64,000 bases of DNA, taken from NCBI RefSeq assembly GCF_964355755.1, contig NC_092675.1, forward strand, positions 1,049,812 through 1,113,811, read 5' to 3'. Below are positions 28,577 to 51,700 of this stretch, in pieces. A program made the translations under genes and the position numbers. This stretch comes from Antedon mediterranea. Its lineage: Eukaryota; Animalia; Echinodermata. Every line of letters begins with the position of its first letter. Within the stretch, counting starts at the first letter, position 1. The notes under the pieces are model-generated. The model made no database searches. It worked only from the letters and a program-made list of their open reading frames with translations, and had not been told where the DNA came from.

Positions 28577-31500
28577 TCACTTTTTGGCAAAGTATAATTT
28601 TTTAGTTAACATTGACATAAAGCATGGTACCTGCTTCTTGCCAATCATTGCAGGATCCCTACAGGCCTTTACTGACCGCTGAGAAACAATATGGTTGACC
28701 AACAGAAGCATGTCTGTAAATTCCATCGTCGTTCCGTAGCGTTCCATGACAAATGAAAGAGCTTGAATGAACCAAGAACCATAGGCTGTGTCTCGGTGCG
28801 AGTAATATCCTACAGTCAATGGAAATAGCGAAAATCATTTTAAATAAAAATAATGTAACTACGTATAATATATAATATATACATTGATGAAGGCGTGTTG
28901 CCCGAAAGCTCTGCTAACTTTTCTGGCTGTTTTACTTTATCGTTTTGATTTAGCTTTTCGCTTTTATTTTGAATCTCCATTGAGATCCAGCCACTGATAC
29001 CCACAACATTGTCATTTTTTCAGTATTTTGCCTTTGAATTTAAGTATATGTATAATGTTATTGTTAACATATTGTTTATAGTCAAGCCACTAAGTAAAAC
29101 AACAATGTGTGCTTGCCCTATTCAAGGGATATTTAACTTATGAAGGAAAAACTAAGAGATATTAGTTTTAATTAAAAAGCTCAACAAGAAACATATTGAA
29201 AATTAGGACTGTATCCAATGGTGTAACGTATGGGGCAAAGGTCCCTGGTTTAGCACTCCTAAGGTCCTTTAACTCGTTGCATTGGGGCTGTTCATACTCT
29301 CTGGGGCCCCTAGGATCTCACCACTGTGCATATCTCATTAATGCATATGATTTTAAATTGATAGGTAGAGGTTTACCTTCAGCTACAGAGTATGCTAAAA
29401 GAAAGTCAGCACCAGCAGGTACAGTGGGCCTTGGGCCTGCATCTGCTACATCAACATCCATTAACTCTACATCATCAAGACCATCCATAGCATCTATACC
29501 TATCTCATGGTCCTCACCACGACATGCCTTTAAAATAAACAATAGTATATATTAAATTGTTGTTAAAGTTTGTGCTCCAAATTTTAAACCTCATATCTAT
29601 CATTGTGTAATTGCATATTTAAGAACAATATTAATTTTCATTAATGTTTATTTATGGAGTATTGAGATGTACTAATTTACACAACCTCTGTAGTGGATGA
29701 CATAGTTAAGAAATCATTTGTCCACAACTCTATACATGTTTCCAACTCATCATTTCAAAGATAGTTTGTTTTATTCCTTCTGTAAATATAACTTGTTTAC
29801 TAATTTCATTATAAATCTTCTACTAACCTGTATTAAAAAAATCTTTGGTTTTCCAACTAAACTTTTGCACTTTTCTCCTCTAAAACGGTCGATGAGTTCT
29901 TGTAACTTAAGTACACCATCATAAGCATAAATGACATCGTTATCACCATGAGTAAGGAAGACGCATACAAAGCAATCTGAATCTGCATGACTCTGTAATG
30001 ACACTAAAAATACAAATTGTTGTAAAGTAAAATTTCTGATATTAAAGATTTGATTTCTAAAGGAAAATTCTTAAAATCATTAAACAACCAGTAATTACTG
30101 TATCTATGCCCGGTATAGGACATGTCTTCTCAGGACTATAAACCGTAGGCCAGTGTACAAATCTAGCTTATGTGAACTTTAAAGAACCTAGTACATCTTA
30201 CGAGACAAGTAGGGGTTACCCCGGTGTACTAGTACATCACAGGCACTGATCACAACTGGGCCCTCTGGGAGACCAGTCTTTGACTGAAGAAGTCGCTCAG
30301 TATAAATAAAATATTTCAATTTTAATACAATTTAAAAAAAAACACTTAATTATTAAAATAATAGTATGGATGATGAACACAAACAATGATTGTTTTTTCC
30401 CGATGGATTAATGAAAAAATTGCCAACTTGTAGTACTAGTGTCGTACCATTTTTTAGGGCATCCCATAACTGCACGACTGTTAAATCTTGATGAACTTTG
30501 ACATCAAATTGAAGCTTTGTGAGTCGTTTTTTCAAGTTGTCGACATCATGTTGAGTTCCTCGTCTACGTGGCATTTGCGTGCCCAGATGAAATTCTTCAT
30601 GATTGAAAATGACAGCAACACCACGTTTTGGATGAGACATATTGTAGCTTAATAAATTCTTGTCAATTCCCTGTAAAATACTAAATAATAATTTATAAAA
30701 CATGTTATATAAATGTTTATTTGTTCAACAAGATGTATAATAGAGACCGTATAATATAGGCCTAGTATATAGCCTCTCTCTAGCTAGGGCTAGTACTGTA
30801 GTGAAATACCCCTCCGCTTAATGGTTCGGTCCACCGAGTGACCCGAGGTCATGTGTGCCGTCCCGGAGAGACCTGCGCTCTCTTGAGACTTGGACGACAT
30901 AGGATAAACACGGGATATAGACACCGCACATCGGAGGTACACTGAGTGTTTTACCGTGTTCGATATCAAGACAGAGACAGCATACCGTAGTATTTACTGT
31001 TGACAAAGGTTGGGTGATGACCTCCCAAGAGACCAGCCCACCACGACAGGTAAGCCACACTACTTTCTGCTAGTCTGATTATACTCTCGGCCGTTTTACA
31101 ACATTGGCGCTGCGAGCAAAAACGTAAGCGATTAACGCCAAGTTAATTAGTTTTGGCATAGAGTTCGTTCCCACACCTGTGGGGCGACAACGGTTCGAAT
31201 TTCCCGCTGCATTTTCACAATTCCGCACGGTGTAGACTCACCGCGATTAGTGAATTTAATAAAGTGCACGGATTTTTTGTTCGACTCTGTAGGCGCTACT
31301 TGCACTGCGTTATTGCTTTTGTACCGTAACTTCATCAAGTGAATCCCATTGAGAAGTTAGACTGACAATACAGAAGAATTATAGACTGAGTATTATTTTG
31401 TTGTGGGTTTTGTTGATATAGTAAAAATATAAACTATAATAGAAAGAGTTATTTCAGTTGTTTTTAGTTCAAACGTTGTGGAAATTGATTCAACGGGCGA

Positions 31501-34500
31501 CTCCTCCATTGTGTGTTCTTTTGAATTCCTAAGACACCTGTGGGCGGATTCCGCGCATTCCATTAGTCTCATTTGCATATCGTTTTGTGTTTAGCAACTG
31601 TGATACATTTTAATTTACTATTGTCTTTCAGAAATAGAGGTTATTTTGAAACTTTGTTTATTACGATATTTTACCATTACATTTTACGTATACTCTTTGT
31701 AAATTGGGATACGTTTCCTGTGGGGTAGAATAGGTATAATCAGCAGTCAATATATACAATTTGAATCCCTATTGATATAACACTTTGGTTTGACCTTGAA
31801 TTGTTATTTAGAGTGCACTTGATTACATAAATATGCCTCCAAAAGCCAGACTGATATCTATAAATTTCTGCGACGTTACAGACTTACTCCTGGTGCCTGG
31901 TATAGGTGCTGCACGTGCTCAGAAATTATTAGACTGGAGAGGCCGTTATGGGAATATCACCCCGGTTAACATTGGGGATATAAAGGGTTTGGGGAAAACC
32001 AAATTTTCCAGATGGTTCGACTTCACCCCAAATCCTAAGCGGGGAGGGATTATCACCACAATGAACGCTGTGACATACTTAGTGGATGCACGGAACGAAA
32101 CTAGGGCTGCCAGTTTAAATCCCGCTAACGGGGACTCCACGGTTCACCGTGAGCCTCGGGGAGATGAACGGGACCGATCGTACTTCCCTGCCAACCCGGG
32201 ACCGGGACACGAATTTAGATCCCCTACACTCCCGGAGGTCCCCTTACGTTCCGAGGTTGAGGAAGACCGCCCTCTTTGCGATGGTAATGGTACACCATTT
32301 AACCCGTTTGTAGGTAGCCCGGAGGGAGTTGTCCCATCCCATATGCCCGGTCAATACTCCTATGTGGATTCCTGGGGGGAACCGGAATATCGGGACACCC
32401 CTCCTACACTTTCATCTCACGGTACACGAGTAACATCTACTGTTAGTCCTGGAATTACGCCTGTGTATTCTAGGGCCCAGGCTACTCCTCAGGCTGAACA
32501 GAATGTGAGGGGTAACACTCCCGTGGTTACTGCTAGCACCACGTCGGCGTATACCCGGCCGCACACTCCCGTCTCTCATAGGCCCCAATACTATAATAAC
32601 AGAGGGGGTCACCCACCAGCAAGGCGGTCATCTAGAGAGGTACCTCAGAGACGCCAAGTTGATTGGGCGTATGGAAACCATGACCGTACGTATTACGGTG
32701 GCAGCGAGAGTGAGGGAGAAAATGCCCAACCATCATTTCACACCGACCACGATGAATTCTTGGCGTCCTTCAGAGAGTTCTTACGGTCCACCGAGCGTAG
32801 GGCTCCTAGACGACAACAACAACAACAACCACATTTTAGGTCAAAGGACATTCCTAAAAATCTGTCGTTTAGCGGGAGGGACAATTGGGTTTTATTTAAG
32901 CAGCGGTTCCTCAACTATGCTGACGAATATGGCCTCAGCGATAGGGGAATGCGCGACGCTTTTCAATGGTGCGTTACAGGTATTGCGGCAGATTACTTCA
33001 TAAACCTAACTCATATGAACCGAGATTTATCTTTCAGGCATATTATAGGGGCTTTTGACGAGCGCTTCAAGGCTGAGGAATTACCTGAGGTCTTGCAAGT
33101 GAAGTTGGAGGCGGCCAGTCAACAGGAAGGTGAATCCATTGAAGATTGGAGCGACAGAGTACTCACCCTAACGAGGAAAGCTTTCCGTGAACTTCCTAAA
33201 GACTGGATTCATCGGAGAGCAGTCGTGAAATTTTGCGTGGGTTGTCTCGATGCCGAGGCCGGTCAGTATATTCTACACCAGAATCATACTACTTTGGTGA
33301 GAGCACTGGCAGCCTACGAAAAATACATTGGTTTTAGGGAACTTTGCAATCGAGGAAGAAAGGGGCGACCAAGGGAGCAGGTGAGGCCGCACGTACGATT
33401 CGCAACTGTGCCTGACCGACGACATCACCGGTCGCCGCCCTCGTATACAATAGAGTCTTCTGAGAGTGGAGAGGAGGTAGAGGTTCGACAGGTTGGAAAG
33501 GGTTGGACTCGCCCGGCGAGCCTCGAGAAACCTGTTGTACCTGGGCCTGTGGACAGGAAGGATCAATACGATCGCAAGGGTCCTCCACGGCCGACTCCAC
33601 CTCGCACCGAGACCAGGATGGAAGCGGTCGAACGACAAGTGGGGCAGTTGAACACGAACGTCGACCAGTTGACGACCAACGTCGGCCATTTGATGACCAG
33701 GTTTGACAGTCTATTAACGGCCTTGCATCCAACACCTACATCACCACCATCGCCGGGTAGACGGTACTCAACCTCGCCCCCGAGAGTGTGTTTTGAGTGT
33801 CGAGAACCGGGTCATTTCAGGAAGGACTGTCCTAAGCTAGCCCGACAAGTTCGACAGATTGAGTCGGAAGGTGACCAGTCGTCAAACTAGACCAGGTTGG
33901 AAGCGCAGCCCAGCTCCCCAACCTGTCACCTCGTCCGGGCTCAGGTCTTGTAACGGGTAACAAAGGTAAGTATAAGGGTAGTAAGAATAATGGTAAGGAT
34001 AATAAGAGTATTGACAATCCCCGTGATAATGGTGATAACATTAATAGAAATATTAGTCACATTAACACGGGTCAAGATAATACTAATAATTCTTTCATTA
34101 CTATGAGTAATCTTTCAGAGACAACGCTGCGATCAGACCTGCTCCCAGGTGGCGGAGACCCACCCGTGGGCACTACTTCGACGACCAACGAATCGTTGGA
34201 ACCTCGGGGTGCTGCGGGGTGGACTCGGCCAGTGGAAGTAGCCGGCACCGCAGACGAAACGGAAGAACCAATCGTTATCAATCGAGTACGATCCAACCGA
34301 GCCTTATACACCACGGTCTACGTGAATCAGACTGAAGTAACAGCTGTGGTGGACACGGCTGCGGACCGGACAATACTCTCGGATAACGTATACTCTCGTT
34401 TAGTTCCTAAACCACCGATTGTGGCCAAGCTTAACTTTACCCTAGCGGGTAGAGGGACATCGATGCCTGGTTACAAGGTGGGACCTATTCATTTTAGGCT

Positions 34501-37500
34501 AGGGTCGGAATCCTACACCGAATTTTTCTATGTAGCACCGATTCACGATGAAATGCTGTTAGGTCAGGATTTTCTGGTAAAAAATGGGGCCATGGTAGAC
34601 TGCGGACAACTGCTGTTAACTGTAGGTGCAAGCACAGTCTCTCTGCGGGGAAATCGGGAACCCGAACCCCCGAGAACCGCTCGTGTTCTTGTCGCAAAGC
34701 GTAGAGTGATACCACCTCACTCTGTAGTGCACGTCCAATGTCAACTTTCACCTAACCATTTACCTTTACCAGATTTCTTTATAGATCCAGAGATCAACGC
34801 TTCTGTGGCAATTCCAGCTACCACACATCGAGGCCTGCGTATTCCGCACCTGTGCGTGGTCAACACATCGGACATGTACGTCACCCTGAAACAGGGACGG
34901 AACATTGCAACAGCCACAGAAGTAGATCAGGTGGAGGAGGATGGAAAAGCCAACGCTGCCGATGTATGTTCCGCAGCCAGTCATGATAAACCTGTCTCGT
35001 CGGCAGTACCCATGCATCTGGTGGACATGCTAGAAGCGTCCCGTGCTGATCTCTCCGACTCCGAATTCGCACAATTGTCTTCTCTTATCATTCAACATCA
35101 AGAAGCCTTCGCTTCGCATCAGTTCGATATTGGTACGTTCAAGGATATTGAGCACACCATAGATACGGGCAAGGCTCCGGCTATCAAGCAACGGCTCCGG
35201 CCAACGCCGATTCGCTTTGCTGGCGAAGAGGAGAAGGAGATAAAAAAGATGCTCCAAGCTGGAGTGATTCAACCCTCCATCTCAGAGTGGGCATCACCAC
35301 CAGTCCTGGTGCGGAAGCGTGACGGCTCCGTGCGCTTCTGCATAGACTATCGAGCACTGAATAACATCACCATCAAAGATGCCTATCCGTTGCCGTTAGT
35401 AAGGGACTGCATAGATACGTTATCTGGAAACATCTGGTTCTCCAAGCTTGACGCCCTCTGGGGATACTGGCAGATCCCGATGAAGGAGGAGGACCAGAGG
35501 AAAACTGCGTTCATTACCAAGCATGGTTTGTATGAATTTGTCAAAATGCCATTTGGTCTTTCAAACTGCCCGGCTACGTTTTCCCGTGCCATGGGGTTAG
35601 TGCTACGAGGTTTGGTATGGGACGTCGTACTAGCATTTCTGGACGATATCGTCGTGCTGGGAAAAACCTTCGAAGATCACCTGAACAACTTGACCACTGT
35701 CCTGGGGAGATTTAGGAATGCTAACCTTAAACTAAAACCCAAAAAGTGTGTTTTTTTTCAGAGAAAGGTAGAATTTCTTGGACGCATCGTCGGTGACAAC
35801 TCTTTCACAGTCTCCGACACGGATGTGGAAGCCGTCCAGAACTGGCCCACGCCAACCAACCTGCGAGAAGTACAACAGTTTCTTGGTCTGGCTAACTACC
35901 ACCGGGAATTCATCAGTTCTTTCGCCAACCTGGCTGTCCCGTTGTACCGTCTGACTGAGAAGGGAGTCCAATTTGTGTGGGGAGAGGACCAGCGGATCGC
36001 TTTTGAATCTCTCAAGAACGCATTGGTTCAACCTCCTGTCTTGACGTTGCCCAACATCCGGGATGAATTCATACTAGATGTGGACGCATCGGACCACGCC
36101 ATCGGCGGTGAATTGCTGCAGATGCAAGAGGGTAAGGAACGAGTAATCGCCTACGCTAGCATCCGGCTCACCGCCGAACAGCGCAACTACTGCACAACTC
36201 GTAAGGAGTTGCTGGCCATCGTGTACATGACCCGGCATTTCCGCCACTACCTGCTGGGCCAGCCTTTCCGGGTAAGAACCGACCACAGCAGTCTAACTTG
36301 GCTCCTTAATTTCAAAGGTCCCCAAGGACAACTAGCTCGTTGGATGGAGGAGCTTAGCCAGTATACCATGGTAGTCGAGCACCGGCGAGGTAGGTTACAC
36401 ACCAATGCAGACGCGCTTTCTCGTCTTGGGGGGTGTGAGCACGGCACCATCACTCCGGACGACCTGCCCTGTGGGGGTTGCACCTACTGCCGTAGGACGC
36501 ATGCGAAATGGGCACGGTTCCGGGAGGATGTCGACGACGTCGTACCCATCTCCCAGATTCGACAGGCAAGTAGAGGAGTGGGTAGTGAGGGGTTTGTATG
36601 GGACCCGGGTGGTCGAGCGACCGTGGAAGTAACCCGGGCTCCCAATGGATTAACGAATATTTGTGTATTACAGGATGGGGATATGGTCACATCGATTCAG
36701 CCGGAGACACCGACCGCCCGATGTTGGGGGTACTCCGTCAGCGAACTCCGGGACCAACAACGTAAGAATGCTGATCTCCAGCCTATCCTGCGGTGGTTGG
36801 AGCGCCAAGACGACCCCTCAACCAATGAGCTGTTCCTCTTCAGCCCGAGCACGAAGTTCTTTTGGTTGAATCGAGACCGTCTTCATCTGTCCGACGACGG
36901 CATTCTGTTCCTGAAGCACGAAACGTCGGGCGAGCGTCTTTTGGTACTGCCGAGGGGTTTGCAACTAGTTGCCCTGCGACTACACCACGACCTCCCTTCG
37001 GCTGGACACCAAGGCATCGCCCGAACCCGTTTTCGTCTTAAGGAAAAGTTCTTTTGGTATGGTATGTCCAGGGATATCGGAAGGTATGTAGCCAACTGTG
37101 AAGTGTGTAACCGCAATAAGAAAACCGGCCGTAAAGCCCGGTATCCCTTAACAAACTTTCATGCAGGTACACCCATGGAACGGGTACATATCGATTTTCT
37201 TGGGCCTTTGCCTAAAACCAACATGGGCAATGTATACATTCTCATGATGGTGGACCAATTCACTAAGTGGGTTGAAGCGAGCCCACTTCCTTGTCAGACA
37301 GCGGAGGTAACGGCCCGAGCCGTGGTAGGGAATTTCTTCTCCCGGTTCGGGATGCCTCTGGAACTCCACTCTGATCAGGGGAGTAATTTTGAAAGTGAAT
37401 TATTTAGTTCTTTATGTAAAGTTTTACAGATCCACAAGACCAGGACCACCAGTTACCGACCCGCCGCCAACGGCCAGGTGGAGCGATACAACCGGACCCT

Positions 37501-40500
37501 GATGGATGCTGTGAGATGTTTTGTAGGCCGGCAGCAGAAAGATTGGGATGTGTTTCTACCACAGCTAACTGGAGCCCTCCGGGCGACGGTGAATCGCTCG
37601 ACGGGGTACACTCCCAACATGCTGATGCTCGGACGAGAGATCAACCTTCCGGCCGATCTCATGTTTACAGCTAGCGACCCGCCAACTGCACGAGCACCCG
37701 ATAGCTACGTGACCGCTCTCACACAATCAATCCGTGAAGCACACGACATAGCACGGGCTACTCTGGGGGAAACGCAGCGACGCATGAAGAGAGACTACGA
37801 CCTCCGAGTCCTCTCACGCCCCTACGACCGTGGGGATAAGGTATATGTGCTAGATAATAGCCAACCGAAAGGTAAATGCAAGAAGCTGTGTCCTCCTTGG
37901 AAGGGACCCGGCATCATCATCCAAGTTATCTCTCCGGGACTGTTCCGGGTCAAGCTGAGGAACAAAGTGATGGTTTTGAACCATGACAAGCTCAAGCCCT
38001 GTCACGACCGGCAGCTCCCGCGGTGGATAACTAACTATCATTTATCTCTTTCAGATCCGAGCGAGGAGAACGTCGACGATGCGCCGGGAACGCTATACTG
38101 TTCCTGCCGGAAGCCCTGGGCTGGGTCATTCATGATTCAGTGCGATTACTGTGACGTTTGGTACCATGGCGCCTGCGTGAATGTCTCTCCTTTAGACGCT
38201 CTGAATATCGACCGCTACAAATGCGCTAATTGCAGAGACTGAGTATCCGAGCTGAAGCGATTGTAGGGTACCATTATTTAATTGTCTCCGTATTTTTGTA
38301 TCTCCATAGGTTGTTTTCGGCGCAACCGACATCCGGTTGAGACAACAACGGCAAGTCAATGGACGGTGGCGTGCCCTGTCGGGAGAGGAGCAGGAGGAAA
38401 CCCGGCGGCGACTACTCGCATCTGAACCTACCCTAGCCCCAACGGGGGAGGTCAGTGGAGATGTGACCGGCGTAGATACTGCCCTCGAGTCGACGCCAGA
38501 ACCACCACCATCCGGCGCGCCGACCGAGGATTCACGCCCACGGCGTAAGAACCCGTGCGTGTTTCCGGGATGTAACTTCGAGGCTGTGCACAACATGAGG
38601 AGGCACGTGTGGTCCCACCACCTCCCCTCATGTTTTAAGTTACCATCGACTCCGCAAAAAATACAGACCAAGCTCTGCCTGCTGCGGAAGTACGCCGTGG
38701 AAATATTGGGTAGGCCGGAGTCCACTTTGGACGACCTGGTCACCCAGCTGAATGCGGAGAGGGCTGTTGGTCCGCATGTAGGCGTCATCGACCAGAGGAC
38801 ACTGGAGATGATGTCCGAGCTACAAGCGGCGATCGGAGGTGAGCCACCTGAGGGATTTAACCTTGTGCCACTCAACCATCCAGCGGCCCTAATCCATTGG
38901 CGCTACATGGTAGCGATGGCCCAGCGGATGGACATCACTAAGATGAGCCAGCTAGCCGCCGAAGCTGAGGCCGAGAATCCCCTCGCCCAGCCCGCCGAAG
39001 CTGAGGCCGAGACTGGCCGCGCTCAGCCACCAGCCACCAAACGTAAGACCGTAAAACGCAAGAGGAGGCTCGGGTCACCGACCCCCTCCAGGCGGGAGAA
39101 GAAGATGGTGCGGACCACGATGAGAGCGTTCGACGCCCACTTCCACCCGGACCGTTTGCGCTCTTTTCTGAGGCTGTCTCCTCGAGCCACACTGATGGAG
39201 ACCTTGCTAGCTGAACCAGCTGGAGCCCAGACAAAGCCGGTAAGACCTGTTGGGGGTGTCGCCATCTTTTGCGATCCTCCCTCTTACCCTTCAGCGGAGG
39301 AGATTCATCGCCTCCGGCGGGAGGGGTATGAGGTGGGGGTCGGGGTGCACCCCAAGAAGGACGTCTCGCCTGGTCAACTCTCCCGACTGAAGGCCTTGGT
39401 GCGCTCCGGCGCTACCCGGGTGCTCGGGGAGATCGGCTTGGATCACTCCGTTCCGGTAGCTGACTGGTTCAGGCAGGAAGAGATGCTGCGGTGCCTCCTG
39501 GCACAGGTTTTCTCACCTCGACACCATCTGGCGATTTGCCTGCACCTAAGAGGCAGTCGCAACGATCCGACGGCGGAGACGTGTTATCAGAACTGCCTAA
39601 ACATCTTGCAGATAGCACGGGTTCCAAGATGTGTACGCATTCTACTGCATAATTTCTCATCGACTGTGTTAATGGCCGATAGGTTTAGGAGTGTTTTCCC
39701 CCTGACCTATTTCAGCTTTACACGGTCGGTGGAGGGCTTCAACGAAGAGCAGAAGGAAGCGTGCCGACACATCTTCCGCATGGATGACCGTCGCCTGCTA
39801 CTGGAATCAGATGGGCCCCACTTTGCTCCTCCGGGGCAACGAGTGGGTGCACCACATCTGCTCCATCACACCGCAGTAGGTAGTCGGAAGGATCTTAGGC
39901 CAGGACGCCGAGCAAGTTCTAGACTTGACCCGGAAGAACGGCCGAGATCTGTTCCTCATGGTGTAGAGCCGACCATTCCGGCGGCCTACCAGAAGTTTTA
40001 AGTTATTTTATTATGTTATTTTTTGTAAGGTGCCAGAAGATGCACCAGATTCAGTTATCTTAGCGTTAACCAAAAGTTATTGTTTTATTTTACAGCATGA
40101 CCACCCGGGCACCGGCCCTGGCCTTATAAAATCGGGGGAAGTGTAGTGAAATACCCCTCCGCTTAATGGTTCGGTCCACCGAGTGACCCGAGGTCATGTG
40201 TGCCGTCCCGGAGAGACCTGCGCTCTCTTGAGACTTGGACGACATAGGATAAACACGGGATATAGACACCGCACATCGGAAGTACACTGAGTGTTTTACC
40301 GTGTTCGATATCAAGACAGAGACAGCATACCGTAGTATTTACTGTTGACAAAGGTTGGGTGATGACCTCCCAAGAGACCAGCCCACCACGACAGGTAAGC
40401 CACACTACTTTCTGCTAGTCTGATTATACTCTCGGCCGTTTTACAACAGTACTAGTAGTAGCCTAGCTAGGCTAGGCCTAAATGCTAATTATTAATTTAC

Positions 40501-40808
40501 TATTATTATAGACCTAGCCTAGGTCTATTAGTCTATACAGTATTACTATTATTACTATTAGTTTATCAGTTAGCAGGTATTTACCTTGGTACGTCAGAGG
40601 AAGTAGAATAATCAGGCATTAGTCCTAGGCCTGGTTGAACATTCCAACTACTGGCTGTGGCCTCAGACGCTGGGGTTTGATACCGACTTCTTACCGTAGA
40701 TGGCTGTTGTTGGTTGCTCGACGACGATGAATGAATGGAAGGACGAGACGATGCAAACAAAGCATCGTTTTCTGTTATGTGATTATCGTTCTTTGATTGA
40801 TCTGCCAT
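28577..40808 (-). CDS. CASP6: Caspase-6-like effector caspase, 5 coding exons; intron 1 hosts the LTR retrotransposon
   Basis: Exons 40808-40695 (or -40585 with the alternative acceptor at 30680), 30670-30448, 30003-29828, 29527-29377, 28809-28577. Motifs [32 protein letters not shown]|ACRG (catalytic QACRG), [26 protein letters not shown] and [17 protein letters not shown] are characteristic of caspase-6. Confidence 0.88.
28884..29025 (+). repeat. Interspersed repeat starting with a degenerate minimal hammerhead ribozyme (Penelope/retrozyme-like); second copy 63145-63296 on the minus strand
   Basis: (T)TGATGA-AGGC-GTGTT-GCCC-GAAA-GCTC-TGC, followed by ~120 bp homologous to the reverse complement of 63145-63262. 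Confidence 0.55.
30105..30310 (+). mobile_element. SINE-like repeat fragment (related minus-strand copy ~56560-56700)
   Basis: Shared core GGACTATAAACCGTAGGCCAGTGTACA...ACTTTAAAGAACC..ACATCTT..GAG..AGTAGG resembles the conserved central domains of metazoan tRNA-derived SINEs. Ends in an AATAAA/A-rich tail. Confidence 0.5.
30797..31103 (+). repeat. 5' LTR (307 bp)
   Basis: TGTAGTGAAATACC...CGTTTTACAACA; identical to 40142-40448 except GGAGGTAC vs GGAAGTAC. Contains TATA-like GATATAG (~30913), ATG at 31017 and splice donor CAG|GTAAGC at 31049/31050. Confidence 0.97.
31105..31118 (+). promoter_or_regulatory. Primer binding site, probably tRNA-Ser
   Basis: TGGCGCTGCGAGCA one base after the LTR, complementary to a tRNA 3' end ...UGCUCGCAGCGCCA of the serine-tRNA type. 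Confidence 0.75.
31833..33890 (+). CDS. Gag (685 aa): N-terminal ComEA-like helix-hairpin-helix domain, capsid-like core, coiled coil, CCHC zinc knuckle
   Basis: [46 protein letters not shown] (two HhH motifs); [14 protein letters not shown]...[14 protein letters not shown] (retrotransposon Gag/MHR-like); [14 protein letters not shown]. Confidence 0.9.
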   Translation: MPPKARLISINFCDVTDLLLVPGIGAARAQKLLDWRGRYGNITPVNIGDIKGLGKTKFSRWFDFTPNPKRGGIITTMNAVTYLVDARNETRAASLNPANGDSTVHREPRGDERDRSYFPANPGPGHEFRSPTLPEVPLRSEVEEDRPLCDGNGTPFNPFVGSPEGVVPSHMPGQYSYVDSWGEPEYRDTPPTLSSHGTRVTSTVSPGITPVYSRAQATPQAEQNVRGNTPVVTASTTSAYTRPHTPVSHRPQYYNNRGGHPPARRSSREVPQRRQVDWAYGNHDRTYYGGSESEGENAQPSFHTDHDEFLASFREFLRSTERRAPRRQQQQQPHFRSKDIPKNLSFSGRDNWVLFKQRFLNYADEYGLSDRGMRDAFQWCVTGIAADYFINLTHMNRDLSFRHIIGAFDERFKAEELPEVLQVKLEAASQQEGESIEDWSDRVLTLTRKAFRELPKDWIHRRAVVKFCVGCLDAEAGQYILHQNHTTLVRALAAYEKYIGFRELCNRGRKGRPREQVRPHVRFATVPDRRHHRSPPSYTIESSESGEEVEVRQVGKGWTRPASLEKPVVPGPVDRKDQYDRKGPPRPTPPRTETRMEAVERQVGQLNTNVDQLTTNVGHLMTRFDSLLTALHPTPTSPPSPGRRYSTSPPRVCFECREPGHFRKDCPKLARQVRQIESEGDQSSN
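33881..33925 (+). promoter_or_regulatory. Probable -1 ribosomal frameshift signal joining gag and pol
   Basis: The pol frame is -1 to gag and open only from 33875 (after TGA 33872) through to ATG 34103. G_TCA_AAC_TAG is followed by the hairpin CAGGTTGGAAGC...GCTCCCCAACCTG. Confidence 0.7.
33884..38242 (+). CDS. Pol: aspartic protease, RT, RNase H, integrase, C-terminal PHD finger (first ATG 34103)
   Basis: AVVDTAAD (PR), [22 protein letters not shown] and LAFLDDIVV (RT), [26 protein letters not shown] (RNase H), [38 protein letters not shown] (IN), WKGP, then [31 protein letters not shown]...YKCANC (C4HC3 PHD). Confidence 0.96.
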   Translation, partial: KLDQVGSAAQLPNLSPRPGSGLVTGNKGKYKGSKNNGKDNKSIDNPRDNGDNINRNISHINTGQDNTNNSFITMSNLSETTLRSDLLPGGGDPPVGTTSTTNESLEPRGAAGWTRPVEVAGTADETEEPIVINRVRSNRALYTTVYVNQTEVTAVVDTAADRTILSDNVYSRLVPKPPIVAKLNFTLAGRGTSMPGYKVGPIHFRLGSESYTEFFYVAPIHDEMLLGQDFLVKNGAMVDCGQLLLTVGASTVSLRGNREPEPPRTARVLVAKRRVIPPHSVVHVQCQLSPNHLPLPDFFIDPEINASVAIPATTHRGLRIPHLCVVNTSDMYVTLKQGRNIATATEVDQVEEDGKANAADVCSAASHDKPVSSAVPMHLVDMLEASRADLSDSEFAQLSSLIIQHQEAFASHQFDIGTFKDIEHTIDTGKAPAIKQRLRPTPIRFAGEEEKEIKKMLQAGVIQPSISEWASPPVLVRKRDGSVRFCIDYRALNNITIKDAYPLPLVRDCIDTLSGNIWFSKLDALWGYWQIPMKEEDQRKTAFITKHGLYEFVKMPFGLSNCPATFSRAMGLVLRGLVWDVVLAFLDDIVVLGKTFEDHLNNLTTVLGRFRNANLKLKPKKCVFFQRKVEFLGRIVGDNSFTVSDTDVEAVQNWPTPTNLREVQQFLGLANYHREFISSFANLAVPLYRLTEKGVQFVWGEDQRIAFESLKNALVQPPVLTLPNIRDEFILDVDASDHAIGGELLQMQEGKERVIAYASIRLTAEQRNYCTTRKELLAIVYMTRHFRHYLLGQPFRVRTDHSSLTWLLNFKGPQGQLARWMEELSQYTMVVEHRRGRLHTNADALSRLGGCEHGTITPDDLPCGGCTYCRRTHAKWARFREDVDDVVPISQIRQASRGVGSEGFVWDPGGRATVEVTRAPNGLTNICVLQDGDMVTSIQPETPTARCWGYSVSELRDQQRKNADLQPILRWLERQDDPSTNELFLFSPSTKFFWLNRDRLHLSDDGILFLKHETSGERLLVLPRGLQLVALRLHHDLPSAGHQGIARTRFRLKEKFFWYGMSRDIGRYVANCEVCNRNKKTGRKARYPLTNFHAGTPMERVHIDFLGPLPKTNMGNVYILMMVDQFTKWVEASPLPCQTAEVTARAVVGNFFSRFGMPLELHSDQGSNFESELFSSLCKVLQIHKTRTTSYRPAANGQVERYNRTLMDAVRCFVGRQQKDWDVFLPQLTGALRATVNRSTGYTPNMLMLGREINLPADLMFTASDPPTARAPDSYVTALTQSIREAHDIARATLGETQRRMKRDYDLRVLSRPYDRGDKVYVLDNSQPKGKCKKLCPPWKGPGIIIQVISPGLFRVKLRNKVMVLNHDKLKPCHDRQLPRWITNYHLSLSDPSEENVDDAPGTLYCSCRKPWAGSFMIQCDYCDVWYHGACVNVSPLDALNIDRYKCANCRD
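38310..39966 (+). CDS. ORF3: zinc-finger-like and basic N-terminal region fused to a TatD-family metallo-nuclease; probable 1-nt frameshift at ~39877 in this copy
   Basis: TatD motifs in order: [46 protein letters not shown]. The C-terminal TatD-like helix [25 protein letters not shown] lies in the +1 frame (39880-39966). The ORF is preceded by a polypyrimidine-AG acceptor at 38308-38309. Confidence 0.85.
40127..40141 (+). promoter_or_regulatory. Polypurine tract
   Basis: AAAATCGGGGGAAG immediately precedes the 3' LTR. Confidence 0.75.
40142..40448 (+). repeat. 3' LTR (307 bp)
   Basis: Direct repeat of 30797-31103 with one substitution found; followed by TSD GTAC. Confidence 0.97.
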
Positions 40809-41453
40809 GTCCAAATTTAATTGAGGCTAGTTTTGACTAGGCCTACTTGATACAGATTTAGAAAATACAGTAGGATATCATCAATCACAGAAGTGACACA
40901 CAGAAAACCGACAGAATAATACACACACAACAAAAAACAAACAATACAAATGATGTCATTAGTAAGTCTGCTCTACAATGACAGACGAACCAATTCGCGT
41001 CAACTATTATGTGTAACGCGTTACTAATTTAAAACATGATAAAACAGCATATTTAACCTTGTTTTTTCTGGTATAAAATATAAATTGATTTACCATTATT
41101 GGCATATTAATCAATGAAATAAAATGTAAATAGTTATATCATAGAACGAGGAGATTACAGTCGAGTCATGCGCAGTTCATAAAATCCAAACAAAGAAAAG
41201 ATGTGATAGAGGGCGGTTGCATGGAATAGCAGTTTTAGTTTCGTTTAGTATAGTTTTTAAATTGTTAAATTTGAATGATTTCAACAAGAAAAAGGGTAAT
41301 TTAAAAAAAAGTTTTTACCGGCGGCACAGGCGAAAAGTTTTCATTGTCAATCAGCCTTTCCTTTAGTTATAAACAGTACTTTTAGGCTCTTGGTTATCTG
41401 TTTCGCTTTTATCATGATTTGTTGTTTGTTTTTAATATTTGTTTTCTCTTTTG

Positions 41454-42741
41454 CAAATACCATGGAGTAAAGAAGCTTTACTCCATGCAAATACAAAGCT
41501 TGGCTTAGTATCATCAGGGAGTTGTAACAAATCCCTGGTATCATGACTTGTTTTTGCAAACAATTCTATTAATCTACCACCCACACTGACGTGTTACATT
41601 TTCTTTTACGTATGGAGAAAGTATCCTGTATCTGAATTCGTTTATCTATTTATGGTACTGAAAATAATTGACATCCGTTTCTTATCTGTTTCCTCTCCTC
41701 ACGAACATCAACTACCACCAGTCTACCAGCTACCCCAAGGTCGCCCTGAATAAACAATCATATATGTGACGTCATAATAGTCCACTTTGTGATTGGCCCA
41801 CGACTAGTAAAATTAACCGAGGATCCAATTCTTACCTTATCCAGGAAGCTGTCACAAACGAATTGATCAAACAAAGCGCAAAGATCTCATAAGACATGTC
41901 AATGTGATTCATAGAAACCATCTACATCGGCAACAGAAAATATGTTTTCATTCCGTCTGCTAATATGCTTAGGTTTTATATTATTTATATCGGTAAGTAT
42001 ACTGACAAATTGTTTATTTTGCAAGTTGCAGGTAGTTGCATTATTGTTTGAAGTGAATTGGGTTTCACTTCATTTTTTGCAATTTTGCAAATTTTTACTC
42101 AAGGTTAGATAGAATGTTTTGTTCTTATTATGCATATCTAGTCTAAATATATATGCTAATGGGTGTACATAACATAGAGATGTGCATAGCCAGATTTGTA
42201 GTGCTTCTAATGCTAAATACAGTAACAAGAATATCACGAAGGACTTACATTACAATGTCCACATGCTGAGAACTAAATTCAACAACCTCACGGTCACTCG
42301 TAAATTCCTCACCCCTCGTTACAATTGCTCGAGATATACCTCCATGGATTGCTTAGCACCCTAGGGGTTAGGCCTAAAAATCATACATATTATGTTGTCT
42401 AAAATGTAGGCTATAGGCCTACTTTAATTTATATGGATTTTTTTGAAAAATTCAAGGAAATAAAAGAGATCGTGCAATGGTCGACGTATATATTTTACGT
42501 ATTGTATTAACTTCAATAAGGCCATATCTATCTAATATAAAGAAGTTGGGAAGAAAATTTTTGTTTAAATGGTATCAATAAAATTCGCCTAATCATTCAA
42601 GTCGTGATAAAGAAGTAGAGAGTGGAAAGAGAGGTATTAAGTCGAAAGAAAACTATTCATAATATGAGGAGAGGAAAATGTTAGAATTTGAAACAGAAAT
42701 ATTAAAGGCTATACCCATGGAGGATACCTCCATGCTATACC
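41454..42741. mobile_element. Three further 19-27-bp CA..TG hairpins with perfect 7-bp TSDs (P-element-type footprints)
   Basis: 41461-41487 CATGGAGTAAAGAAGCTTTACTCCATG (TSD CAAATAC); 41515-41537 CAGGGAGTTGTAACAAATCCCTG (GTATCAT); 42716-42734 CATGGAGGATACCTCCATG (CTATACC). Confidence 0.75.
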
Positions 42742-45700
42742 ATAAATTTTGAATATATAGTTTGGCAATAATCATAAAAAAGCAAGGGTGTCTATCAGGT
42801 AACACTTTCCATGTTACAATGTATAACAAAACAAAAGGGCGTTCAATAGTCCCGGTTGGGGGTACGTAATTGGGTGTGGGCGCAACAAGTGTAATTTTTG
42901 CCACAATAATGGCCACTGACTAATTTACTCAAAATTACGTAGGCTATAGCTACAGATTCCGGGGGCTGGAGATGATTCAAATGTATTCATGTTTCAACAA
43001 ATTACCGGTATGCGCGACTGTTGGCCAAACATTATTTGGAAAAATATACAAACAGTCAATACGAATATATATTCAGCTAGCGCTTCGGGAAATATATATT
43101 ATTCCCTCGAACATAATATCATTTCCTCGGGGATGTCAAATCTTATATTTAACGTCTAAGCAGTCAATATCTGTAAAATATTTGCCTGGCTCTGGTAAAA
43201 ATATGTATATATATATACTGTATACGGTACATGATTTTCTAGCAATATGTATGTATAGCCTACATTACAAGTTCCTATCTCGTTGACCTAGACATCATAT
43301 ATCGTGGGTTGCATTCCATTCTTTATTTTCGCAAATCAATTAATATCTTCCGTTTTCCCTTATATTCTCTGGGTTCTTGTTATATATTTCTATTAAATCG
43401 GTTAATTCTTTATGGTTTTCAGAAGGTTACGTTCAATGTTCAATAAAGCCGATTAAGTTCGGGGTTTCCTTATGGATTTCCGGGTGTTCAATATTAGATC
43501 TCACTTAATTCTTATCTATTGTTATACAATGTGTATTGCTATTTCATAAAACAAAATTATGAACCGCACTTTTTCACTTTTGCTGAAATCGTCAAAATTA
43601 AGAAAAGGTTTAAATTTACAGGAAAATATCAAATAATATGACAAACTCTATTAGTATTACATCCACTACCAAACCTGCATAATGATATCTTTAAAATATG
43701 ATTATTTAAATGATTTATGATTTACTTACATTTTAAGGCGTAATAGTATAGTTATATTGGGATTTTTTTGTATTTTTATTTTAGTTCGTTGATGCTGGAA
43801 AACAAGAAACCGACGGTAAGTTTTGAATAAAATGTTTTAACAACTTTGTTTCGTCATTTATTACTCAAATGTGTCACATACACAAACAGTTATTATGTGA
43901 GTGTAGGCCTACACATTCTATAACTTACGACACATATTAAAATATTCAGTATACTGTAATATAGTTCTAAAGTACTTTGTTAAATTATTTTGGAAACACA
44001 AATATCAAAGTTTCTCCAATTAATAAAATGGTTCTTTCTTGACTTACAATTCTTCTGGTCATGAATTTCATAGATGAATTATATCGTAGTTTAAACAGAA
44101 GATCGCCTGGGAACCCACGACCACCAATTAAACCGAGAGTACCACATCGTCGCCAAACAGATAGACCGAGACCCAGACCAAGATACCCTATAGCGACCTC
44201 ACCACCTCCTCCTCCTCTACCCCAAAAAGGTAGTGAAAAGATCAATGATTTCAGCACATTGCACCTCGGAGTTTACACATATCAGGCGTTGACGGACGGC
44301 TGTGTGTGCAAACTCCGGTATTTTGCTAAGGTGATGAGATTAGTTTGCCACTATAGTGAGATTATTTATAGGACTGGAATATCATTTCATTTACATACAC
44401 TTATGGTCCTGAAGTCAGAACATTGCAGCTTACGCATCTACATTTGTGATCACGTTTCGTCTTCGATTATAGTTTAGCTTTCAAACGAATTTCATATTAA
44501 AATGTTGTTTGTATACTCCCAATGTCCAAGCTAATAGCAACAATATTCAGCACCAATGTTATTAGACAATAAAAATAACAGTAAACATTTATAGATTTAG
44601 AGACAAAACATGTACGGTAATAATAACAATAGCAGTGAAATCGTTTGGTATAATAATGACATTTATATAATTTGCACATGTAAAATACTTTTCTCTAAGT
44701 CCTCAACTACAGTAGAAGTGAAATCGAACTTCTAATGTTGGCCATATTTTTTTTTCAAAGCTGTTAGGAACCAAAATAGGAATGCTAATGCTGATGAATG
44801 GTCAACGGAAATAAGGTATTTATTATATTATGTTATCATAGCTAGTAACATAACTAGAATAACAATTTTGATGCTCGTGTGACTCCATTCTGTAATCATA
44901 TAGTCCTAACTCCTAACTCTCAAAATTTATTAACTGGACGTGTATTGTAAACAAAAATTGTCACATCTTGAGAATTAGGAAAACATGAATCTGCGTATTA
45001 CGAAACATTTAAACTACATTTTTTGGTTGACATTTTAGATTAGTTGATGGAGAAAGTGACAACATTGGTCGTGTTGAAATTCGTGCAGAAGTCAAGCCTG
45101 GTAAAATAAAATGGGGGAAAGTATGTCATGATAAATGGGAACAAGAAGATGCAGACGTTGCCTGTCGACAGTTAGGATTTTCACGGTAAATAACATGTAA
45201 ATGATTACTCCATGCTCTGACACGCGTGTAATATTCGTGCGGATTTTGTATACATCCATACAGCGAGGAGCCCTTTAGCACTCGTTTTAGCAAGCATGCA
45301 ATGTTTCGACATGACACTCGCTTCTCTAACATTTCTTTTTACAGTAGTTGAAGACAAAAATTGTACATTGTCTCATCGCTTCTTTTAAAGTGTCTTCATC
45401 GATCAAAACTGTCTTTTATAGGGGTGCAAAGAAAGTCATTAAAAATGCAGAGAGAACATTTGGGCCAGGCAAACTTAATTTCTTTATGGATGACGTCGAG
45501 TGTTCTGGAACCGAAGAAGCTTTACAGCTTTGCACATTCGGAAAGAAGGGTAGTAATAAGTTCGGTAGAGGTAATTGCAAGGATAAGAAAGTCAGGACTG
45601 CCGGGGTCGAATGCTGGATCAACCAGCTAACAAGTATGTGTAACTAAAACTACTATTGATTTATTATTTTCAAAACAGTATTTCAGCAGCAACAAACATT

Positions 45701-48700
45701 TCGTCATAGTAGGCCTACGAGAAGTGAGTTTCCAATGATAATCATTTTTAATATGACACTGGACTGAAATACAAGTGTTCATATATCTGCTAGCTCTATA
45801 ATGTACCGTATTTATTTATTTTTATCAAAAAGTATGTACAATTTTGTTTGCAGCTCCAGCTCCAGATATGCTACACAAATTCGCTAAATTTGCCAACGCA
45901 GCAATTCCAGCAAGCAACAACATACTAATAGAAAACATGGATCCCGGAGCATGCGCATTAAGATGTATACGAGAGCAAAGCTTCACGTGCAGATCGTTTG
46001 ATTTTGACAAAACAAAAGAGAGATGCTGGTTAAGTGAAGAAAACTCACGATCGGTTTCCTTGAGTTTCAGTTATCGAGACAATCCTTACGATTATTATGA
46101 ACGAATTGATATAGGTATGTATTAATTAGTGTGACTTCTTGGTCAACATTTATATTTAAACTGAATATATGTGTGGAATAGAAGCGTAATGTGTTATTAT
46201 ATGATCTGATGAAACAAGGCTTGAATATTAACTCAGAATCAAATGCTTTACAGTTAACATTTCAATATATACAGTACATATAGTACTATGTATTTCCATA
46301 ATATTACTTCCCATTAACTTGTAAAGAAAATCTTCGTTTTATATTTATAACTGTAGTAAAGTTTCTGTCAGACTTTTATAAGTGACAATGACTTGCTGTT
46401 GGTATGGATAATTGAAATAACTAAAATAAAAACGTCATAATTACACATTGCCTTACATTATTTATGGATGATACAATTAGTAACAAACTTTTATATAACT
46501 TAACAATTTTCTTTTTTAGGACCTGTATCATCTTTTCAAATTGTACCCAATTCTGCGTTGCCAGGTCAGAATATGATAGAATATCGCAATACTATGCTAG
46601 AAAAGTGTGCTGAACTTTGCCTCGCTGCTGCGTTTCAATGCGCATCTTTTGACTTCTCACGTAAAACAAGCCAGTGTTGGTTAAGCAGTGCAAATCGTAC
46701 AACGGCGAGTGTGCCACTACGGAGTGATTATCCGGACAACCCGTATGATTATTACGAACGCAAAGGAACATGTTTGTATTACTTTTAGCATTATTTTTAT
46801 ACTATTATAACAAACTCATATTCAATAGTTGGATGGAAATCTACCGTATCTAATACGATATACACCTTAGTTTCTCCAACTTTTCCAAACTGCTGATTTT
46901 CTAAATGACTTTGAAAACAAGATGAGATGCGCCTTTAGTGCAGCGCATATACATCTGAATCCCAAAGGTATAAAGTATACATGTAAATCATTTGTAAGGC
47001 ATTGGAGTTTAGTGCAATGATTCATCATTTCTTTAATTCATTCCGTAAATAGGCCTACATAATTAACATATAATTTAAAATTTGTTTTCTTGCAAATATA
47101 TAATATTTTATACTACCTATACCTATTGGATAATGCAAAGACTAACCATAAGAAAGAACAAAAGTGACGCACCAACATAAGTACAAGTCCTTACCAATCC
47201 AAGAGGATCATACAAGTTATATACACAAATGTACTAAATAAAATAACTAATTTATGCATTGATCTTTCAGCTGCTCGCGAGTGCGTTGTTGGAAAAGGAG
47301 AATTATACAGAGGAAAGGCATCTATGACTGGTGGAGGACAAAGATGCGCCAACTGGCAGGATGTTGGCAATGCAGTAGACGTCAATCCTACAACATTTCC
47401 AAATACAGGTAATTCATGTTTTTGTATTACTTTAGGCAGTACAAATCAAATAAACGTTTGCATTTATCATTGTAATAAAATAAGGGTTAAGGTTTTAACT
47501 TTCAGTACAGAAAATTCAGTGACAAATAGCGAAGATTGATACAGTATATAAATGACAGATTTATTGATATGATAGCCAATCATAGCATTCTTCAATAACA
47601 CTAACATGTCCATTATTTTAATTCATGTTGCGAGTTATTATATTGAGAAAGTCCTTATTCACATCCTTTAAACGTATGTTAAACTTGCAGGACTTGGTGA
47701 CCATAATTTTTGTCGAAATCCTGATGGCGATGAAAAACCGTGGTGTTACTACTATGTGTCTTCGAGTTCTATTGCTGGTTTGCAGATCGTGAGTGGTTGG
47801 GATTATTGTAGTGTTTCTGCTTGTGGAGATCCAACAGGAAAGCCTAATATATTAACTCCTACTCAAGATATTAGTAAGTAACTGTCAATTATACATTTGT
47901 ATACACACACCTTCGTAGAAATTCCAATATTGAAAATGGCGAAACTTTTGTAATGTAATCACGAATTCGGGAATTTGAGACGGAACTTTTCTACACCCAC
48001 CATGACCAATATTTGTTAAATGTTGTTAAAAAATAAACAAAAAGCTACATTTACTGCTTGTTTCGAGTCATAAAGCATCGTAAAACTTTCCTATTTTTTA
48101 AACGTAGAATTATTATCGCTTGGCAAGACAACTGGACAAAGCAGTACAACGTCTTGGTCTTCCATTATTGGAAGTTCGGATAAGGCCGTGGATGGTAACT
48201 TGTCTCCTAACTACTATGAGGGTAGCTGTACACATACAGGTACGTCAATCCAGTTGAGTACATGTGCGAATATTTAAGCAATCAAGTGGGATATATTGAA
48301 ATAATATATAAACGTTTGCTATACTGTATATGGACAATGAAAGCAGGAACGCGTGCGGAGTTAGTAATATGCATGTACGTCTACTTAAATCAAGAATTTG
48401 ACCAAAAAGAAAATTAATTTGTCGAAGTAACAAATGTAGATGTGGAGTAATATGTGATTCTTATTATAGATCTTGAGCCGGAACCATATTGGTATGTTGA
48501 TCTCGGTGCTGAATTTAACATTGAACATGTTACAATTGTTAATAGAGCGACAAACGGTAAGAAAATACTCGTTTGGTTTTATATTCCTTCCTCATCACCA
48601 TCAAAGAGGAACGTAAAGTTTGGATCTTTCGTGTTCTTTCGAAGTTCTTTCCTCAGCGATACAAACTTGTGACTTGTTACATCCCATGATGAACATAACA

Positions 48701-51700
48701 ATTCTATATTTTGTATATATGTCTATTATTACAGGCAACCGTTTAATTAACGCACAGGTTAGTGTAAGTAGGCAATCGGCACCAACAACCTTCCAGAGTT
48801 GTGGCAGCCCTATCACCACATCAATGTACGAAGAGAGTCAACAGGATTCCTCAAGAGTCATTACCATTCAATGTGGAAGTTTGCTTCGGGGTCGTTACGT
48901 CACTGTAAAATTAGTTGATACGCAGAATTATCTATCTCTATGTGAAGTCAGCGTCTATGGATATAGCATTTCAGGTACAGTATGATGAATTTTGAAATGG
49001 TTCATTCATTTCTTTAAATTAATTCTTTATTATATATATACATCTTTAACTATATGTATACTAATAGGCGTTACAAAGAATATGCGGGTGCTACGTGTAT
49101 AGAGAGAGAGACAACATACTGCATCGAAATCAACTTAATCATGAATACAAAGATACTATGAATGGTATACAATTGTATGGAATATAATACAGTACTTTAT
49201 GATTTCCATAATTATGCGATAATAACATGTATATATATATTATAAATTATTTAGGAAACCAAGTTGTACCTACGCTAGCAGCTACAACCCCATCGCCCAC
49301 ATGTAGTACAACCGAGTTCCGTTGCAACGATGATCAAAGGTAGGTTAAAAGAACATATGTAAATATTATTTAAAAAATCAAATATTAAATGTAATTAGTC
49401 AAAACAACTTTAGACCAACATCTGAATGAAACCGTGTAGTGTAAGATGTAAGATCTACAAGAGACAGCAACCTGGTGTCACTATCCAAACATCTCAGTCG
49501 ACAATTCTTAACCTTGAACTTCGTGTTTATCGGATGGACATACGATATCTCCCATCATGCCAAAAAAATACAAAAAAAAATATTTCTCACCATAACGGAA
49601 CACATTAATCCAGCAAGCTGCCTGTACAGACCAAATTCAACTGAGGGAGGAGTAAAGATTCCTTTTGATAAACCCCTTCGGTTTTACTAATATCTGATTG
49701 TGATTTGTAGGTGTATTCCATTATCGTGGAAGTGTAATGGGGATGATAACTGTGCAGATAGAAGTGATGAAGATGGATGCGGTAAGACGAATAAATCACA
49801 CCTTTCTATTAATCTCTGCTTAGTTCATCGTTTTACTTTATCTCAGTATGAGCAGGGAAGAGTTAAATTACTTCCCTGGTATCAGCTATTCTTACTCTCT
49901 ATGGTATTAGTAAATCTTTCTCAGTCACATCATCATTATTTGAAGTGTGTATTAAGAATTCTTAAAATCACATTTTATTGTTAGTTATAAACTAAAAATA
50001 TCTATGGGATTTAAAAAAAAATCTAATTTATATATTTGACCTATAGTGAACCCGTTAGATGACTTTCGAGGTTTTGAAAATCAGCAATTACCGAAGGCTA
50101 GATCAGAAGAGGAATATATGCGCGTGAGTGAGTGGGAATGTGCGCAGAAATGTATCGAGACTGAATCGTTTGTGTGTCGCTCTTTTGACTATAAATCAAC
50201 CACAATGGATTGCTACCTGTTTTCACAAAATAGAGCTTTGAGAGGAGGGTTGATTGATGCTAATGGCTACACTCATTATGAAAGAAGTTCACAAACAAGT
50301 AAGACTTTCCCACCTCCTGATGAGATATTTTATATAGCCATTTTAGATATACTGATGTATATACTAAACTGTATTGTAAACATTCTTCTTATATGCATTG
50401 TTACGTTTATTTACTATAACCTTGAGTTTTCTAAATTCAAGAAAATAATGGAAAAAAAAAAGAGAGTAATATGTCAATATGTATTTGTAATAATTATGAT
50501 GAACGAATAAATGTGGTAGATTACACCGCAAAAAAAGCAAAGCTCTGGAAGGGTCATAGTTCAGTAATTGATTAAACGTCATTTATGCGTGACGACACAA
50601 TAAACATTAAGTCAACAATTGGTGGTTAACAATCATACCATCAATCTTTGGTCTAAATAATTTGTTTGCTGTTTGATAAATGCCAGAAAAAAACAATTAT
50701 ATACCAGGATCTCCTATATTTTTTCATGGTGTATGTTTATAATCTAAAGCTGTCTACACTATCAAACTAGTTTACATATGGTAGTGATATGGCATCATCA
50801 TGTCCAATGGACATGATGATGTCACAAAGTTTGATAGTGTGGACTTAAACTTAATGAAGATTATTGTTCTCATTATTTCAGGTGACTGTGATGATGCAGA
50901 CCATCATCCGTGTCCTTCTGGTCTATGCATCCCGATGAGATGGCTCTGTGATGGCGATAACGACTGTAACGATTTCAGTGACGAATCAAATTGTGGTAAG
51001 GGATTATGTCATTCTTACCGCAGTAACTATATATTGTTTACTCTTTGACCCGTTATAATTATTATGCAATATATTTACAAACAAGCGTTCCTTGGGTAAC
51101 TACACACACGCTGTGCATGTGTGATATATTTTTTTTATAAATGTTGTATTTCTTTTGTTTGTTATGTGCAATATAGACCCCTTTGGAAAAGGTGTATCCC
51201 TGGACCTGATGCTCGTTATTTTGTCTCTATGTAATTTTAATGATGAGCATCAAATAAATTCAATCAAAAAAATGCAATCAATCTGTGTATTGCAGTGAAA
51301 GCCTCAAACTTCTATAATGAAAATAACTATCATATACATTACTGCAGTAAAACATGTAGTTCCTGCAGCAACTGCAGTAGAATAATTTTGACATAATCTA
51401 AAGATTTTGAGAAAGTTTAATAATCCATGATTTATGCAATTTCCAACAATTCCTCATGTTTTAATTGTTAAATAATTTAAACCTTCATAGGCACAACGGC
51501 CCCGTTTGAGGTACGCATTGTTGACGGTACATCAGAGAGTGAGGGACGAGTTGAGGTACGCTGGATGGGGGTGTGGGGTATAATTTGTGATGATAGATGG
51601 GATTTGACGGATGCTAATGTGGTTTGCAAGCAACTAGGCTATTCAAGGTAAATACAATAATTGTCATCATCTAGAAATACGAACTGACATCAATAATGTA

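Follow-up and report, generated by a model that had tools for sequence, protein, structure and literature searches.

A very recent Ty3/Gypsy insertion in the first intron of a caspase gene

The window analysed here, a 64,000-nucleotide stretch of the Antedon mediterranea genome (contig NC_092675.1), contains a 9,652-bp Ty3/Gypsy element (30797-40448) with an intact Pol that carries a PHD finger at its C-terminus (Table 1). The element has the direct TG...CA long terminal repeats (LTRs), primer-binding site (putatively tRNA-Ser-like), polypurine tract and short target duplication of the Ty3/Gypsy group, as well as its gene order, i.e., gag followed by a pol arranged as protease, reverse transcriptase (RT), RNase H and integrase. 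Both LTRs are 307 bp long, start with TGTAGT and end with ACAACA, and because they mismatch at a single base the insertion is very recent. A contig of sequencing run X6 (related organism, record 29) extends for 482 letters beyond 40489 without aligning to the LTR, LTRs of this run otherwise do align at the element LTR, and we infer that this relative lacks the insertion. Two other identities were rejected: the element is not a chromovirus, since it bears the PHD instead of a chromodomain (no chromo match at E ≤ 0.1), nor a Troyka element, the latter having CG ends and 3-bp duplications (PMC12440569).

Table 1. Coordinates of the element and of the host caspase exons within the window.
Feature	Position	Strand	Remarks
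Caspase-domain exons, downstream, past the element	28577..30724	-	
Left target-site duplication GTAC	30793..30796	.	Empty site CTAGTACTAG, 10-bp palindrome
5' LTR, 307 bp, TG...CA	30797..31103	+	CAG/GTAAG splice-donor-like site at 31050
Primer-binding site TGGCGCTGCGAGC	31105..31117	+	Start identical in relatives L016, L027 and L089
gag	31833..33890	+	Weak N-terminal helix-hairpin-helix match; weak capsid-like matches; CCHC knuckle
pol, 1,455 codons open	33875..38242	+	Protease, RT, RNase H, integrase, PHD
Integrase parts: H2C2, core, WKGP form of the GPY/F motif	within 33875..38242	+	
C4HC3 PHD finger, integrase C-terminus	38093..38239	+	Predicted cage codons Y 38096, W 38117, M 38132, W 38159
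Third ORF, behind an acceptor-like site	38310..40001	+	C2H2-like motif 38559-38624; TatD nuclease domain 39129-39872
Polypurine tract	40128..40141	+	
3' LTR	40142..40448	+	306/307 bases as in the 5' LTR
Right target-site duplication GTAC	40449..40452	.	
Host caspase exon 1	40585..40919	-	ATG at 40808; run X5 contig; GT donor after 40585

The insertion point is 132 bp inside intron 1 of the caspase gene; the element runs opposite to the gene, with 360 bp between the LTR end and the caspase ATG. Exon 1 is supported by a contig of run X5 (record 24, putatively RNA), which spans the exon and departs from the DNA exactly at its donor; from the extent of this contig, the 5' end of the transcript lies at least 467 bp from the insertion. 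The divergent neighbour encodes a trypsin domain, its first exon, as read from the sequence alone, being near 41965-41992. Both LTRs carry a splice-donor-like site close to their 3' end (31050 and 40395), found as well in the LTRs of relatives L008, L025, L029, L086 and L093. The 3' LTR is directed at the caspase/protease promoter region, and antisense or chimeric transcripts could arise from it. At the start of Gag (31866-32012, + strand), a weak match to a DNA-binding helix-hairpin-helix (Pfam HHH_3, under the cut-off) was seen, and relative P0093 is also listed with HHH_3.

Elsewhere in the window, AGGCCT/TAGGCCTA and CTAG motifs form clusters at 4829-5197, 18267-18579, 22179-22876, 40474-40839, 42370-42415 and 58923-60089, just inside the apparent starts of the RPB5, LASP-like, synaptotagmin-like, caspase, protease and COX18-like genes (the LASP, synaptotagmin and COX18 names being our own assignments from translations). 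These clusters are a possible promoter-proximal signature of this genome; a literature search on the TAGGCCTA motif gave unrelated papers among the matches listed. Long, near-perfect inverted repeats made of short tandem units (10676-13011 and 19517-21851; 1,457 bp at 100%) flank the 5' half of the LASP-like gene; they may represent a foldback-type element, an inversion or an artefact of the assembly. Finally, the first intron of the protease gene holds a short, very high-copy repeat (43073-43182) with a summed depth more than 100 times that of its flanks in all four runs aligned.

The PHD finger at the integrase C-terminus

The PHD finger covers residues 1407-1455, i.e., the very end of the pol frame, and follows in a single frame the Pfam protease, RT, RNase H, integrase zinc-binding and integrase core domains. 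It passes the Pfam PHD model (30 bits vs. a cut-off of 24), and its Cys4-His-Cys3 zinc ligands show the canonical spacing. A sequence search against the PDB gave 46 distinct sequences at E ≤ 0.01, with best matches to PHF2 (E 1e-12), KIAA1718, PHF8, DIDO, CFP1 and BPTF; the entry titles for these and lower matches include complexes with H3K4me3 or H3K4me2, and most of the PHF2, PHF8, DIDO, CFP1 and BPTF fingers were solved with methylated H3K4. In these alignments, Y1408, W1415, M1420 and W1429 stand opposite a Tyr, Tyr, Met and Trp of PHF2, four positions that form its methyl-lysine cage (Y7, Y14, M20 and W29). The finger shares ligand spacing and cage positions with those of PHF2/PHF8/KIAA1718, DIDO, CFP1 and BPTF, which, unlike it, belong to host chromatin proteins; at the second cage position PHF2 has Tyr where the window element has Trp and half of its family Asp. 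The predicted structure of the PHD is weak (mean pLDDT 57, rising to 72-80 over the PHD core), and in a Foldseek search with this model all rows listed were PHD-containing entries, none at E ≤ 0.001. Frame, Pfam and PDB alignment together confirm what a sequence-only reading had proposed, namely a C4HC3 PHD with a Tyr/Met/Trp cage pattern on the integrase.

Distribution and conservation of the PHD-integrase fusion

A search with the last 266 residues of Pol (PHD included) returned 313 proteins. Among the best 120 of these are many host contigs from metagenomes and, under their own names, proteins of Pinctada, Ostrea, Haliotis, Nucella, Gigantopelta, Diadema, Lytechinus and Ptychodera; when the query is added, 115 of the 121 proteins hold the PHD core. 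Within this set, which was chosen with the PHD, the cage Met and the cage Trp are each invariant across molluscs and echinoderms (115/115), a Tyr or Phe precedes Cys1 in 111/114, and an Asp or Glu follows Cys3 in 108/115; neighbouring spacer positions vary freely. The H3K4me3-reader type assigned in the sequence-only reading is therefore well supported by sequence, given this invariance and nearest solved relatives that are methyl-H3K4 readers, and we predict that the finger very probably binds methyl-H3K4.

The search was repeated with the RT-RNase H region only, leaving out the PHD, and again the best 120 relatives were taken, 103 of which share at least 60% identity with the element; the remaining 17, more distant (<60%), are without a PHD. 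Among the 103, 36 stop before the region of interest and 67 reach the integrase C-terminal region, where 63 have the PHD core and the other four break at or just before it. Such a frequency among close relatives selected on RT shows that the PHD-integrase fusion is the trait of a clade and, with the single open frame, rules out a host PHD exon joined by accident.

Relatives clustered at 50% identity left 150 representatives, 32 of them with the strict PHD pattern. A quick integrase tree of 103 segments, built from unnamed relatives only and with the PHD columns left out (48 of the 150 representatives were set aside for short matches or short tails), places the window element in a 27-row group that contains 23 PHD bearers (SH-aLRT 95). 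Two more PHD bearers fall outside this group, so more than one gain of the PHD is possible. The tails of PHD-less sisters are of low complexity, and 52 of 78 hold, in the slot taken by the PHD, a basic R-x-G-R...P-x-x-L peptide (P0226, P0229, P0233 and about 50 other representatives), against a mean of 1.7 and a maximum of 6 in shuffled tails, and 1 of 24 among PHD bearers. This peptide appears to resemble nucleosome-binding motifs, and might serve as a nucleosome-binding tether. A Pfam scan of 53 PHD-less relatives found no reader domain in them, and a literature search on the basic tail motif gave nothing relevant among the matches listed. In one relative (P0115), the integrase core is separated from the PHD by an inserted Tpt1/KptA RNA 2'-phosphotransferase domain (residues 1065-1234, 148 bits).

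Scans of metagenomes (80 loci) and genomes (17 loci) yielded 47 family members. Viral contigs held five distant Gypsy loci, all without a PHD, and matched none of the PHD-specific patterns with which they were scanned. In four contaminated bins, family copies occur on short contigs only. Two bins filed as bacterial genomes, G003 and G004 (loci L086-L095 and L098), contain dozens of animal retroelement contigs, and public databases label some proteins of the PHD-integrase family as symbiont proteins.

The element also carries a third ORF, with no early in-frame ATG behind the acceptor-like site and, in the window copy, a frame change near the end of the TatD domain. This domain (Pfam TatD, 70.6 bits; YcfH match) retains all five motifs, D-x-H-x-H, G-E-x-G-L-D, H-x-R, H-x-F and E-[ST]-D, which we take to be the TatD metal-ligand set; across 26 relative loci they are found, in the same order, in 25, 19, 24, 24 and 24 cases. 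With a TatD match in 16 of the 17 family loci that have at least 3.2 kb after the PHD, the third ORF, as judged from these loci, goes with the PHD-integrase family. Its closest relatives, among two matches, are from a crinoid, suggestive of an echinoderm host, and an Atlas search with its N-terminal part gave only leads under 0.9.

The landing site and the role of DNA sequence

In active animal genes H3K4me3 peaks just downstream of the start, which is where this insertion lies. The coordinates confirm the insertion as first described, about 360 bp from the caspase ATG, in intron 1 and beside the divergent caspase/protease promoter region. The further claim that integration is steered to active promoters is plausible and in part supported: one first-intron site fits, but it is a single site, and its palindrome in CTAG-rich DNA, which the sequence-only reading does not mention, opens a sequence-based alternative. 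Host DNA in the window amounts to 54.3 kb with about six annotated gene starts (four located, two approximate), and 7% of it lies within 600 nt downstream of a gene start, 11% within 1 kb. One promoter-proximal landing is thus weak evidence, as chance would produce it in about 7-11% of cases, before allowing that it was noticed for fitting.

DNA sequence might itself set the site, the integrase core preferring CTAGTACTAG-like palindromes enriched in CTAG/AGGCCT-rich first introns and the PHD providing general docking only. The empty site is indeed a perfect 10-bp palindrome in CTAG-rich DNA, and over the first kb downstream of the four located starts the density of CTAG exceeds that elsewhere 4.4-fold, and that of AGGCCT 6.9-fold (for CTAG, 14 in RPB5, 9 in the LASP-like gene and 15 in the caspase, vs. 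about 2.3 per kb elsewhere). Since such CTAG-rich DNA is typical of first introns in the window, a preference for DNA sequence would also favour these introns. However, GTAC shows no enrichment around gene starts (ratio 0.9), and TAGTACTA occurs, besides the insertion site, once inside and once outside the first-kb regions, numbers too small to judge from, with a single target site known. General docking would, moreover, not require an invariant methyl-lysine cage, and we consider a site set by DNA sequence unlikely.

CpG ratios did not single out the insertion site. Among the matches listed for four runs aligned to 31105-50000, the only LTR-flank junctions were LTR-to-primer-site joints. In none of the 47 relative loci could we identify an insertion where the LTR end is defined and the flank bears a gene; several of them are assembly circles closed through the LTR, or stop inside the element.

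Variation at the second cage position

The second cage position differs among relatives: of 114, 57 have Asp, 23 Trp, 19 Tyr and 8 Cys, the window element having Trp (W1415). On a 114-row integrase tree, the window element falls in a subclade of 42 rows (support 98, FastTree), 34 of them aromatic and none acidic, the acidic state is widespread, and Tyr recurs several times among acidic lineages. A BPTF mutant with Glu, presumably at this same site, was crystallised with H3K4me2 according to the title of 2ri7. The window copy is accordingly best described as of a predicted trimethyl type, and a large part of the family may favour lower methylation states; with Asp in half of the relatives, a preference for H3K4me3 need not hold family-wide, and the aromatic and acidic subclades are predicted to differ in methyl-state preference.

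These data also bear on whether the PHD guides the element to promoters as such, or more broadly to methyl-H3K4 chromatin (H3K4me1/2, at enhancers and gene 5' bodies). Broad guidance would suit the frequent Asp, the spread of the acidic state and the BPTF mutant, but the Trp of the window copy and the aromatic make-up of its subclade favour trimethyl, and for this element we rate guidance to methyl-H3K4 at large as slightly less probable than a site set by DNA sequence.

Comparison with known elements and tethers

LTR integrases with a histone reader of their own are known to direct their elements to silent chromatin. The chromoviruses share with the window element the Ty3/Gypsy order and a self-encoded histone reader after GPY/F that is proposed to steer integration, their targeting chromodomain sitting in the same C-terminal slot of the integrase (PMC5053271, PMC6673714). 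They differ in that the window element lacks a chromodomain, has a TatD third ORF, and bears an active-mark PHD, so that its predicted target is gene starts rather than heterochromatin. The contrast drawn in the earlier reading with heterochromatin-seeking chromoviruses is fair as an analogy (PMC5053271, PMC6673714). We see the fusion as a putative chromovirus-like self-encoded tether that carries a reader of an active mark.

PHD fingers are known from other transposons, including CR1 elements, Rehavkus, Penelope-like elements of Chlamys and several Chlamydomonas transposons (PMC8557442, PMC6673714), and such domains have been suggested to influence integration (PMC6673714). Gypsy-7a_cRei of Chlamydomonas reinhardtii is, like the window element, of the Gypsy type; its polyprotein includes a PHD and it inserts non-randomly. 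Unlike the window element it is green-algal, its PHD is listed between RNase H and integrase, and it is biased to intergenic DNA (PMC9940879), a bias that we counted against promoter targeting by the window element. Ginger1 elements (Ginger1-9_HM) likewise combine a Gypsy-type integrase, a PHD among C-terminal add-ons and 4-bp sequence-specific target duplications, but are DNA transposons with terminal inverted repeats and no RT, and the PHD, accompanied by Ulp1, is present in 1 of the 16 families listed (PMC2836005). The bdelloid rotifer elements Juno and Vesta also have a nuclease gene in the env slot (a DEDDy exonuclease ORF3; PMC5408684), whereas the TatD nuclease of the window element is of an unrelated fold. 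Our literature search, which covered mainly papers outside subscription, found among the matches listed neither an animal Gypsy integrase ending in a PHD nor a TatD third ORF; Repbase entries and supplements may already describe this PHD.

Promoter-biased integration is reported for MLV. The MLV integrase has a BET-binding tail (PMC5053271), and when the integrase-binding domain of LEDGF was fused to an ING2 PHD, HIV-1 integration is reported to have shifted toward transcription starts (PMC8149907, which cites Ferris 2010 and Silvers 2010). In both cases, as proposed for the window element, a histone reader guides integration near transcription starts, yet this reader is a separate host or engineered cofactor, whereas the window integrase carries its own.

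The least probable of the alternatives is that the PHD acts afterwards or elsewhere rather than in site choice, for instance on active LTRs of the element itself or by protecting H3K4 methylation against host silencing, with the landing left to chance: the finger forms part of the integrase, at the place that chromoviruses use for targeting, and Pol is scarce and works mainly in the particle and the integration complex. In its favour, one site at the chance level given above is not significant, the element has other accessory modules (HhH, C2H2-like motif, TatD), and a part in chromatin restructuring has been proposed for the PHDs of other transposons (PMC8557442, PMC9940879).

A proposed self-encoded tether to active gene starts

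The reading that we prefer is that a young Ty3/Gypsy integrase with a methyl-H3K4-binding PHD tethers the integration complex just downstream of active gene starts. Taken as a whole chain, this seems to us probable on balance; if methyl-H3K4 binding is granted, the resulting integration bias becomes likely. The PHD would be kept on the mature integrase, on a variable linker about 25 residues past the last conserved block of the integrase. After reverse transcription, it would dock on methylated H3K4 tails of nucleosomes near a gene start, the finger binding the H3 tail with trimethyl-K4 held in its Y-W-M-W cage. Such a tether would make strand transfer likelier near the first few nucleosomes of the gene, where the catalytic core would then select a nearby palindromic site with a 4-bp stagger. 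Selection would purge insertions in exons, so that first-intron (antisense, as here) and upstream copies remain.

A wider proposal, which we hold as doubtful, would make an old marine-invertebrate Gypsy clade the mirror image of the chromoviruses: an H3K4-methyl reader would have been captured in place of a basic nucleosome-binding tail, copies would insert beside active promoters, and subclades would have retuned one cage residue so as to share promoter and enhancer chromatin. The natural variation at this residue offers a ready means of asking whether the chemistry of the reader determines where copies insert.

An active-mark reader on a natural integrase would represent the opposite strategy to that of the chromoviruses, one seen so far through host cofactors or engineered fusions, and the family would keep giving rise to promoter-proximal insertions and regulatory change in molluscs and echinoderms. 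If the wider proposal is true, the integrase would in addition be an enzyme that targets promoters naturally and without a cofactor, and its LTRs, with their conserved splice donor, would come to lie beside genes as ready-made promoters.
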